A program made the position numbers and the translations under genes. A stretch of 45,620 nucleotides of DNA from Rhizaria sp. SCN 62-66 (Eukaryota), in contig MEDY01000246.1 of NCBI GenBank assembly GCA_001724265.1, positions 1-45,620 of the forward strand. Direction: 5' to 3'. The notes under the pieces were generated by a model. It did not search any database. It was not told the origin of the DNA and worked only from the letters and a program-made list of their open reading frames with translations. This document shows positions 41,523 to 44,875 of this stretch, piece after piece; the stretch's first letter is position 1, and each line of letters begins with the position of its first letter.

Positions 41523-44500
41523 TTATTCACTATCATTATCATCATTATTATTACTTGATTTTTTTTTCGACTTTTTTTTCGACGAAGGAAGCGTCTTGGC
41601 GAGGCCTGCGTTTTGAATGAGCTCATCCGTATGCGTGGTAATAAAATGTGCCAGGGCCTTACCTTGAGCGATGTCTTCAGGAGACGCACCCTCCTCCTTT
41701 GGATATGTGAGACTCAACAGTTGGGGCGACACGAAAGCAGGAATGACGTGAACTGTGTTAACCCGCGTACTATTGGGCTTAGGCAACGCCAGCTCCTCAA
41801 TCTGGCTCAGTGTCGATTTCTTCCTGGCCTGCAGCGTGTCCAGCTCAGTCTCCTTCAGACGAATAGCCTCTTCTAGCTTCTTGTCCTTCCCCTTCTCCAG
41901 CTTCTGCTTCTGCTTCTGCTTCTCCAGCTCATCCAGCGTCTGCATCACGTCCAACTCAAGCGACGCTAGCGCATCCAGCTCTTCATCTTTCAGCTTCGTC
42001 ACCTCCGCCAACAGTTGGCGATTCTGCTGACTAAGCCTCTTATGCGCCTGCAGCTGCATCTTCAGCCTCTTGAGCCTTTCCACCAGCTCCAGCACCTCCA
42101 GCACCCTCGTTACCACGGTCTTGAACTTCTCAACCATCTTAAACGCGCGCGCAGGGCGATAATCATGGGTCTCGCCAGCTGTGAGTTGAAGCGGCGAGAT
42201 GACGATCTTACCAAGGAGTCCGTCGGGTAACATCAGCGCGTAGGCGTCCCAATCGGGGTGCTGATGGGACCGGGGATCGAAGCGCCACACCCGATCTGAG
42301 TCGTTCTTAACTTCAATTTTCCCCGTGCGGAATCGAATAATAGTCTCCGCAACCAGGTAATATGGCGGAGTATTTAGCTCGGCCCTCTGACCGATGGATT
42401 GGCTTTCGGGCACACGAGTGGCATCGCTCTCGACTTTGCGCTTGATAGGGAAGATAGTCAGGTGCTCATGTCCAGTTCCAGACTGGGAGCGAATCACACT
42501 CCTCAAGTCGAGTGTAAGACCAATGTCGAAGCCCTTCGAGTCACAAATTGCGTACTGATGCGTGTGCCGCATGTAAAGAAAGAGAAATTCAAACGCAAAT
42601 CCGTGGGCGCCTGGCGGACATCGCTGGAACATATTAAAAAGCCTGGCTGGGGAGCTAATTGCAATGGCCCGCTGCAAGAGCAACTTGCAAGCCTCAGGGT
42701 GTGCCCACTTGAGCTCAAACTCCATGTGAAAGTACTTGGCTGCGGCTAAACTCTTTTCCCATGCCTTAAGCAGAGACGTTGCGTCCTCTTTAGTTTGCGT
42801 CTTCTTGCACTCCTGGATCACCGCCGGAAGATCAATCGGGTCGTCGAGGATGACTTGGTCAGGTTCGAGTGTAGTCTCAGGCAGAGACGCTGTAGTCACA
42901 CCAGTCTGCGTCTCATCGCACTCCTAGAATACCTCTGGAATAGCAGGCTCCTTGACTGTGAGTGTCGTTGGTGCGATTTGCGTAACAATGGAATGGGAAA
43001 GCTGAAATGCGCCTACTGTACCATCAGTGCAAAAAAAGTTCGCAACCGTCTCAATAGAAGTGGCATCAGCCAACTTATCAAAATGGTTCACTTCAACTTT
43101 ATCAACAATCCGAGATAAAACCCTTGTCACGGAGGCGTAATTGACATGCCCTTGTTCAGAGACAGCGTGTAAGGCAAACCGGAAGTTGCCGAAAACCGCT
43201 TCGGAGGCCATCTTAACCACATCCGACACAGGTTTGCCCAAAATCTTGAGTCCAGCAATAATCTCCTCGTGAGTCCAGGCATAGGACCACAACGGAATGG
43301 TGGTGAGTGATTTGGGAATGCTATCGGCGGATTTCATAATACACTCATAATGCTTGACGTGAGGAGATGTTGCAATCACATTGACGCCCCGACTGTTGTC
43401 GTTGTAAACGGGCTGAGCGTTCGCTTCGTTAGGATCGAAGAGGTACACCGTGTTCGGCTCGTCCATACAGTGACGCACCCCATCGCGTGTCAGCATGCTG
43501 ACAGTTTTCTTGGTCTTTTTCTTTTTCTTGTCGTCATGGTACAGGTGGATGTCACCGTCGCCCATGTGACAGATTACATTCACCCCGAGCTCGAAAAGCG
43601 CGACGTACCAGATGAGGTTAAGCATCACACTCTTGCCAGTGCCAGGGGGGCCACGCACAAGGAATGTCTTGCCCTTATCATTGCGACTCACCTTCGTCGC
43701 GCAGATGTGGGTCAGTATAAGTTTGTACAGCTGAGTGTGTGACACGCGCAACATCAAAATACGAACGTTATCATGATCACATTTGCCCCCGAAGGGAAAC
43801 TTTGCAAGATTACCGTGGATGGATGTGATATCGGGAGCGGCGAGGGTATGGAATAGTCCAGATGCATCCGTACCCCACTTCATCTATGTCAGATTCTCAG
43901 CGAACACATCAAGATTGGCTTGAGATTTACGCAAGGATCGAAGAGCAGACTTCTCTGTTTGTCGAACAGTCTTCATAGGTTGCTGAGTATTCTTCATTTG
44001 TTTTGCAACAGCCTCTGCAATCTTACCAACAAGCATTTCTTCATTGGGCGGATGGCTAGTCACACGCGAATCCAGTCGCGTGTAAGCATTCTTGAGCTCC
44101 GCCTTTGCAACGTTGAGCTTTGCGTCAGCATCGTTGAGCTTCGATTGAAGAGAAAACCAGTCATCGTATCCAATCATATAGAGAGCCTTCGTCGCCGTTA
44201 GTACGTCATCGGCCACCTTCCGTTCCTCAGGAGTGTTCGGCTTAGCTGTTTTAATTAATGAAAGTACCTTGGCCAAGGAGAGGTGATACTGAGCCGTGGT
44301 GACACCAGCCTGAGCCACTTTTAAAGAAACTTCGGCCACTTCCAGCCTCGCTTGAGCCACATCGCATTCAGCCCGAGTAACAGCCTTGGCCTCGGGAGAC
44401 GACAGAGGGTCGATGTCGCGCAAGGAGGCGGTGCAATTCTGCCACATAAGATCGACGTTCATGAGCGACGCCTTAGCCCTGGTCTACTTTTGCCCAGCAT

Positions 44501-44875
44501 CAGCCAGAAGCGAAGTCATCTTCTCAACAGCATTACCATGATTGGAAGCAATTGCAACAGCAAATTCAGCATCACGAACGGTGTCAGGAGAAAAAGCGGC
44601 AACCGCAACCGCAGCACGCAGAGAAGATGAGTCGAGCTCGCTCAACGTTGCTCGGAGGTCATCCTAAAGAGGACGTCGTATACAACGGAGAGCAACGAAG
44701 AAATAGAGAACGCAGGAGGGAGGAGGTACGTGAGCGTGATAATCAAATTCACCACATTGACGGGGGCGCATGCCAGAAGGCTTACAACAAAGGCAACCGG
44801 GCCGTGGTTACGTACCATTGCGGCGTGCCGATTTGGCTGTTCCTTCCCGGTGTTGATATCATCATTCCATGACAT
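41523..44875 (-). CDS. Crinkler/RHS-type effector: N-terminal helical repeats, P-loop NTPase, restriction-endonuclease-like domain, coiled coil; exons 44875-44816 and 44663-41523; three in-frame TAGs (44486-44484, 43886-43884, 42926-42924)
   Basis: The three listed ORFs (43884-44462, 42924-43883, 41523-42899) are one frame broken only by TAG. Motifs: VRGPPGTGKS (Walker A), VYLFD (Walker B), IATSP, AWTHEEI, GFAFE, PDWDAY...LQLTAGETH. A 152-nt GTACGT...TTTAG intron lies at 44815-44664. Ends TAA. The start is provisional because an acceptor-like site sits at 44885. Confidence 0.75.

Follow-up and report, generated by a model that had tools for sequence, protein, structure and literature searches.

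Studies have shown that nuclear genetic codes in which UAG alone has changed its meaning are few, and the available text of PMC11687900 counts about eight such lineages, mostly ciliates. For example, the rhizarian exLh is described in the accessible part of PMC5304391 with 384 in-frame UAG codons in 71 genes, UAG being the only one of the three stop codons found in frame in its coding sequence, and the assignment to leucine was supported there by conserved columns together with a likelihood test. The stops of exLh are UAA and UGA, the retention of UAA being stated in PMC11687900. As far as that portion of PMC11687900 goes, UAG is read as glutamine in Iotanema spirale, Hartmannula sinica, Trochilia petrani and Protocruzia tuzeti, as serine in Scotinosphaera and as leucine in uncultivated phyllopharyngean ciliates. 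The phyllopharyngean ciliates have leucine and, twice, glutamine. In the ciliates among these lineages UAG occurs in 78-91% of the genes, and 87-98% terminate in UAA (PMC11687900).

In this study, we analysed a window of 45,620 nucleotides, which is contig MEDY01000246.1 of assembly GCA_001724265.1 (Rhizaria sp. SCN 62-66) at its full length. The minus strand of this window carries a gene for a P-loop NTPase of the RHS/Crinkler type with TAG codons in its reading frame. The organism occurs in sequencing runs labelled bioreactor, wastewater or activated sludge, and a literature search for UAG as a sense codon in activated-sludge organisms gave nothing relevant. The first-pass annotation of this DNA had taken the TAGs as translated, and as leucine. 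We consider it likely that UAG stands for an amino acid in this organism and is no longer an efficient terminator, with UAA and UGA remaining as stops.

In-Frame TAG Codons in the NTPase Gene Family

A profile-guided scan of metagenomes returned 13 loci, L001-L013; the metagenome scan with a single protein, and the scans of viral contigs and of genome contigs, returned nothing. The identity to the window copy was 99% for L001, which is the same locus, 58-59% for L002, L003 and L004, and 32-37% for L005-L009. L011-L013, with matches of only 23-30 residues around the P-loop, were dropped, and L010, a fragment on a short chimeric contig, served only to confirm one TAG. Seven non-redundant copies were counted (the window copy, L002, L004, L005, L006, L007 and L009). 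Their 5591 codons held 23 in-frame TAGs in 18 distinct columns, and neither TAA nor TGA; out of frame, the same copies held 191 TAA and 383 TGA. From the codon usage of the family, one-step nonsense changes are expected to give TAG, TAA and TGA in proportions of 0.52, 0.33 and 0.15, and the probability of meeting TAG only is 0.526^23 = 4e-7, and rises to about 1e-5 when each of the 18 distinct columns is taken once. At strict sites of the trio of close copies, where two members of the trio share the codon, the opportunities for creating TAA or TGA were taken in 0 of 316 cases (7.2 expected at synonymous rates), and those for creating TAG in 3 of 341 (6.6 expected, thus about 45%).

The reading frame itself was kept. 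The lengths of 46 of the 50 gap runs between close copies were multiples of three, and the remaining four pair up to multiples of three. Radical replacements were selected against, with a fitted beta of 0.283 per BLOSUM unit and a transition factor of 2.06, both estimated within the family. The homologues align through the TAGs without gaps, and the same TAGs were found in separately assembled contigs (L001 and the window, L002 and L003, L007 and L008). The three copies that reach their end (L005, L007 and L009) terminate in TAA. The 3' part of L003 (1516-2068) is frameshifted twice, and a codon that is TGG in the window stands there as an in-frame TGA; this tail belongs to a decaying copy in an otherwise intact family and serves as an internal control. 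By these tests together, the frame is under selection and translation must pass the TAGs. Within the frame TAG is accepted, unlike TAA, TGA or a frameshift, and it terminates none of the genes. A shared read-through context was also considered and rejected, since the bases after the TAGs have no common motif (base +4: A 8, C 6, G 5, T 4).

Two further observations concern the copies themselves. In L010 (1-3165), about 110 family codons including a TAG run into sequence of 69% GC and other character, and the contig is probably an assembly chimera. Downstream of the NTPase gene, L008 (3108-3500) and L009 (3507-3900) have conserved sequence in common, which indicates that the duplicated unit is larger than the gene.

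Structure of the Window Copy

The long open reading frame (ORF) of the window copy (41523..44771, minus strand) has 1082 codons, with TAG in frame at codons 36, 96, 296 and 616 and no TAA or TGA. The TAG at codon 36 ends a pyrimidine-rich tract and is the 3' splice site of an intron, not a codon, which leaves the three internal TAGs at codons 96, 296 and 616 (Table 1). The boundary of exon 1 reads ATG/GTACGT, and the donor and the acceptor of the intron are both kept in L001, L002 and L004; exon 1 of L002 was examined from its last codons onward only. The AP-complex sigma subunit gene in the same window has an intron of the form GAG/GTTCGT...GTGTAG/AAG, whose end in TAG likewise shows that an in-frame TAG can be a mere splice acceptor. 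Introns at codons 96, 296 and 616 were considered and rejected, because homologues align there without gaps, one of them without a break over both 296 and 616. Opposite codon 296, the gap-free alignment has TTG in L004, GCG in L002, GAG in L005, CAG in L006 and AAG in L007 and L009.

Table 1. Coordinates of the NTPase gene, its parts and the host-gene TAG in the window
Feature	Position	Strand	Remarks
RHS/Crinkler-type P-loop NTPase gene with N-terminal helical heptad region	41523..44875	-	two exons, one intron
TAA terminator of the NTPase gene	41523-41525	-	
Exon 1, 20 codons, MSWNDDINTGKEQPNRHAAM	44816..44875	-	ATG at 44875-44873; kept in L001 and L004, then GTACGT
Spliceosomal intron, 152 nt, GTACGT...CTCTTTAG	44664..44815	-	"codon 36" TAG forms its final three bases (44664-44666)
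In-frame TAG, codon 96, heptad position a	44484..44486	-	same column is TAG in L002 and L004
In-frame TAG, codon 296, between helical region and NTPase domain	43884..43886	-	
In-frame TAG, codon 616, linker insertion	42924..42926	-	no paralogue residue aligned
Heptad-repeat helical region, pattern L-x-x-A-x-A-x	44085..44507	-	
P-loop NTPase domain, residues 297-615	42927..43883	-	Walker A GPPGTGKS at 43629-43652
In-frame TAG in a separate GC-rich host gene (~32425-34489)	33169..33171	-	10 codons past the acceptor of GT-AG intron 33203-33365

At the end of the gene (41514-41525, minus strand), the next three codons of the frame after its TAA are TGA, TAG and TGA. Between the splice acceptor and codon 96 (codons 37-95, 44487-44663, minus strand), the differences among paralogues by codon position were 19/18/9, 20/20/9 and 14/12/4, with dN/dS of about 3; this reflects either diversifying selection on the N-terminus or some other constraint upon third positions.

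RNA and Contig Evidence

The window copy appears spliced in a cDNA-library contig. In this library (run X5), a single contig has 44662/3 and 44815/6 side by side, its shorter flank being 59 letters long, and the ends of the removed segment read CT..AC on the plus strand (GT..AG on the minus strand). In the DNA-type runs X1 and X2, contigs pass the intron acceptor unspliced. A further stretch of X5 contig (44394-44544) spans codon 96, where the TAG is unchanged and no difference from the window is seen. In the run labelled polyA RNA (X9), contigs identical to the NTPase gene were found at 42120-42273 and 44193-44357; this run had no contig over 44484-44486 and none identical to the window over 43884-43886 or 42924-42926.

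TAG and Terminators in Host Genes

Thirteen ORFs of the window were taken as genes, and their terminators were TGA in seven, TAA in six and TAG in none. The 11 host ORF segments comprise 9154 codons and contain no TAG, compared with 4.1 per 1000 codons in the NTPase family. In the same segments ATA occurs at 0.2 and TTA at 0.7 per 1000, and scaling by the other AT-rich codons predicts roughly 3-14 TAGs. TAG is thus at best a very rare codon in ordinary host genes. Wide use of TAG across such genes was not seen; beyond the 11 segments, one further host gene had one TAG.

This TAG (Table 1) had been quoted in the first-pass annotation as the context ALRRA-X-LAAARL, and it proved to lie in a different, GC-rich gene. 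It is in frame after a GT-AG intron, the splice phase of which links the upstream frame exactly to that of the TAG. The 247 codons that follow it have a coding score of 0.210 per codon, within the range of the known host ORF segments (0.12-0.36, n = 11), and the stretches downstream of host ORF segments had a negative score in 10 of 11 cases. A protein search with the exon bearing this TAG found no homologues.

A GC-rich coiled-coil ORF lies beside the family gene in L009 (4257-5015, plus strand), with GC of 0.85/0.40/0.88 at the three codon positions. It contains two in-frame TAGs, one of which stands opposite GAG in an internal repeat (LQEQEAR and MQ-TAG-QEAR).

The Helical Region and the Identity of the Amino Acid

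The proposal of leucine had been built on four similar segments in the helical N-terminus, with the TAG in a column otherwise occupied by L, V and L. The four 18-residue segments (residues 89-106, 136-153, 150-167 and 212-229, here S1 to S4, together window 44085-44507) are correct in their coordinates and residues. The likeness of S1 and S4 held, with a score of 34 and nine identities that was reached by only 1 of 1000 shuffles, whereas that of S1 to S2 (score 2) and to S3 (score 5) is at chance level, and S2 and S3 overlap by four residues. The L/V/L column therefore rests effectively on S4. The placement of the TAG at the heptad core was confirmed: the best register puts codon 96 at position a (0.78, compared with 0.55 for the next register), hydrophobic residues stand seven residues away on both sides in our reading by eye, and the conserved TAG of L002 and L004 is likewise in position a. 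Among all helical TAG columns, 3 of 12 are at a or d, compared with 49% of the codons for Leu and 16% of those for Gln. The heptad argument for leucine is real but thin. As to the two other contexts that had seemed natural with leucine, the TAG of ALRRA-X-LAAARL is indeed in frame, and PEVF-X-ECD, which is codon 616, belongs to an insertion to which no residue of a paralogue aligns.

A tandem array of the heptad AKAELKD is present in L004 (about 900-1330) and in the same region of L002 and L003, with a copy number that differs among the paralogues. In one unit of the L004 array a TAG takes the place of the Glu codon.

The codons opposite TAG in the paralogues were TGG (2), CAG (3), TCG (1), TTG (1) and, several times, GAG or AAG, and never TAY, which is close to the abundance of the one-step neighbours of TAG. 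Two codons containing N were removed from the TAG set (L002 column 134, opposite Leu, and L007 column 98, opposite Ala), after which a Leu codon stands opposite TAG in 1 of the 13 TAG cells with an informative pair of close paralogues (TTG of L004 at window codon 296). The profile log-odds over 17 columns were +4.8 for Gln, +3.5 for Arg, +2.0 for Lys and -8.4 for Leu, which came 18th of 20. At lineage-specific sites, the Gln score of the TAGs was 9.2 and that of true Gln sets 9.8 (sd 3.1), and the Leu score of the TAGs was -23.1 compared with -1.8 (sd 5.1) for true Leu sets. These profile tests are biased, because most one-step codons of TAG encode polar residues. In the mutation-aware likelihood, the 20 amino acids were spread over no more than 2.2 log units, with Leu and Gln less than 1 log unit apart. 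These results indicate that the NTPase family is unable to reveal the amino acid, and we did not rely on the profile ranking. In a nearly neutral family, an amino acid read from the aligned residues is unreliable, since the mutational neighbours of TAG determine what stands opposite. The preference for Leu over Gln in the first-pass annotation was accordingly not upheld, with one Leu in 13 cells and no preference in the mutation-aware model. Judged mostly from published precedent, Gln is the foremost single candidate at somewhat less than an even chance, Leu is doubtful, and the remainder is spread over Glu, Ser, Lys, Trp and others.

Alternative Explanations

Several observations weigh against UAG as a sense codon. 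Close copies differ to almost the same extent at each of the three codon positions, as in pseudogenes, and at least one copy (L003) is in decay. All RNA evidence consists of assembled contigs and not of raw reads, and run X5 is labelled "RNA? (probably DNA)". The sample of terminators is small (n = 13), and two of the 13 (13996 and 32425) may come from reading on into an intron. In principle, the TAG of the host gene could also be a genuine stop, with a second gene in the same frame 20 codons on. TAG is missing from the 9154 host codons, and it may be mildly deleterious or only partly reassigned. As for a decoder, the search of the window and of 10 loci yielded no tRNA gene, and there was no Rfam match either. 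If the copies were pseudogenes and their TAGs ordinary nonsense mutations, the even spread over codon positions, the dN/dS of 0.68-1.09 between close copies and the decayed tail of L003 would be accounted for, and the sources of the TAGs do match neutral neighbours (Q, K or E in 7 of 11 one-step events by our tally; 63% expected). Neutrality, however, predicts that 48% of the nonsense codons should be other than TAG, and there were 23 TAGs and no TAA or TGA, with none of the 316 opportunities for these used. The in-frame indels, the selection against radical replacements and the spliced cDNA-library contig also speak against pseudogenes, which we hold to be extremely unlikely. RNA editing could instead restore the codon, from UAG to UGG (Trp) by A-to-I or to CAG by U-to-C change, in which case the genomic TAG would never be translated. 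Such a process has a precedent in fungi, where premature UAG edited to UGG gives full-length proteins (PMC5496914, PMC11156358 and PMC10776026, in the parts available), and TGG stood opposite TAG in 2 of 11 one-step events of our tally, where 6% is expected. Yet the cDNA-library contig over codon 96 keeps its TAG, although partial editing would be invisible in a contig, and fungal editing acts on UAA too according to the accessible text of PMC11156358, while TAA is absent here. We regard editing as very unlikely.

It is also conceivable, but unlikely in our view, that UAG is unassigned or ambiguous, with a weakened recognition by the release factor and near-cognate tRNAs that insert several amino acids without a dedicated tRNA, and is tolerated only in weakly constrained genes. 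The contrast between the host segments and the family agrees with this, as does a TAG that can stem from each of its neighbouring codons without a filter on the amino acid, is fixed at about 45% of the synonymous rate and terminates no gene. On the other side, copies with five or six TAGs would then give little full-length protein unless the read-through were efficient, and the frame is maintained far downstream of the TAGs. A related reading, to which we give only a small chance, is that the organism is midway through a code change, with a UAG that is no terminator, has nearly gone from the GC-rich housekeeping genes and is read ambiguously without a fixed amino acid; UAG would then drift back at a near-neutral rate in the fast-evolving RHS/Crinkler-like family. 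If true, the "unassigned / ambiguous intermediate" stage proposed by theory would here have an example in nature. A definite leucine code through a tRNA-Leu(CUA), as in the rhizarian exLh and one clade of phyllopharyngean ciliates, can be argued from the heptad position a of codon 96, which is TAG in three paralogues and faces Leu in the alignment of S1 with S4, from the TTG of L004 opposite codon 296 in the identical context ENLT-L-MKW, and from the host-gene TAG, which by our reading has a Leu at -7 and a Val at +7. There are precedents in the accessible parts of PMC5304391 and PMC11687900. Against this stand the single Leu among 13 informative cells (the apparent second Leu column, in L002, being the N-containing codon) and the low profile and lineage-site scores, both confounded by the polar mutational neighbours; the mutation-aware model is indifferent, the share of helical TAGs at a or d is far below that of Leu codons, and the perfect tandem heptad array of L004 has TAG in place of Glu and not of Leu. 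We therefore consider the leucine code improbable.

The reading we prefer remains that of UAG as a sense codon. The premise that the TAGs are translated is well supported by the exclusive presence of TAG among in-frame stop codons of the paralogues, the lack of any gene ending in TAG, the spliced cDNA-library contig and the host-gene TAG. The codon would be read by a tRNA whose anticodon is CUA or by near-cognate tRNAs. The NTPase family is AT-richer than the rest of the genome, and its close copies evolve with a dN/dS of about 0.7-1.1 and a kept reading frame. TAGs would therefore arise when any one of the neighbouring codons changes by a single base, and would persist, whereas TAG is very rare in GC-rich host genes.

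The NTPase Protein and Its Genomic Surroundings

In the ESM Atlas, residues 297-615 scored 0.98 by features against clusters that carry PF07999 (RHSP), and the predicted structure of the central domain had a TM of 0.68-0.71 to RHS and Crinkler clusters. The C-terminal half had only weak Atlas leads (0.90-0.92). In Pfam, the window protein matched only nSTAND_NTPase5, with an E of 0.0086 that is below the cut-off, and had no match to RHSP (PF07999); among three distant relatives tested, P0024 and P0026 matched RHSP at E 0.013-0.015, also below the cut-off. No Crinkler or RHS_N header domain was matched by Pfam at the N-terminus, where the heptad helical region is found instead. Sequence searches of the PDB gave nothing useful. 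The family is rare, with one match in a word-indexed protein search and 25 among 1.84 billion representatives. Many RHS copies in trypanosomes are pseudogenes.

The window is eukaryote-like DNA, with a GC content of 60-72% along most of its length and about 50% in the last 7 kb, proteins rich in Ala and Ser, and AT-rich introns of the GT-AG type. Its recognisable genes include those for radial spoke protein 3 (RSP3), a MORN-RING protein, a protein kinase, a fatty-acid desaturase and the AP-complex sigma subunit. In the RSP3 tree, the window protein grouped with metagenome sequences only (99/99), outside the green-algal clade; this tree contained no named rhizarian. Beside the RHS-like gene, the ORF translations at 40104-40343 and 40712-41113 (both minus strand) form a candidate retrotransposon remnant, which we take to resemble a Ty1/copia-type polyprotein at its C-terminal end and a degenerate zinc knuckle of Gag; a Pfam scan of the window ORFs reported no retroelement family at either position.

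Comparison with Known Systems

If UAG is a sense codon here, a GC-rich, flagellated, non-ciliate eukaryote would add a new independent origin to the rare nuclear reassignments of UAG alone, and the contrast in TAG that sets one gene family apart from the remaining genome could reveal the way in which genes take up a freed stop codon again. In practice, standard gene calling breaks these genes at each TAG. Several fragments in the databases start or end exactly at TAGs (P0003, residues 297-615; P0006, 117-295; P0019, 43-95).

As a protein family, the genes resemble the kinetoplastid retrotransposon hot spot (RHS) proteins and the Crinkler-type NTPase effectors in the central P-loop NTPase, as judged by language-model features and predicted structure, and in being multi-copy and fast-evolving, with the candidate retrotransposon remnant adjoining the window copy. 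They differ in that the window protein has no RHSP match in Pfam, no Crinkler header was seen and the N-terminus is a heptad coiled coil. As in the restorative A-to-I editing of Fusarium and Neurospora, in the described part of those systems, genes with a genomic in-frame UAG would yield a full-length protein; unlike there, one cDNA-library contig had no edited letter, and the opposite residues are not mainly Trp.

Like exLh, the NTPase family has only UAG in frame in coding sequence. Unlike exLh, where UAG is spread over many genes, TAG is here nearly absent from host genes and the amino acid is not fixed by the data. The first-pass hint at an exLh-like host thus found no support, with 384 UAGs in 71 genes on one side and none in 9154 codons of 11 host segments on the other. 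With the UAG-only codes of the Gln, Ser and Leu lineages, as far as the same partial text describes them, the present case would share the reassignment of UAG alone and the retention of UAA as a stop. It differs from the ciliates covered there in that UGA is here as frequent a terminator as UAA (7 and 6 of 13), and in having a GC-rich genome, long multi-gene contigs and a TAG that is concentrated in one gene family.

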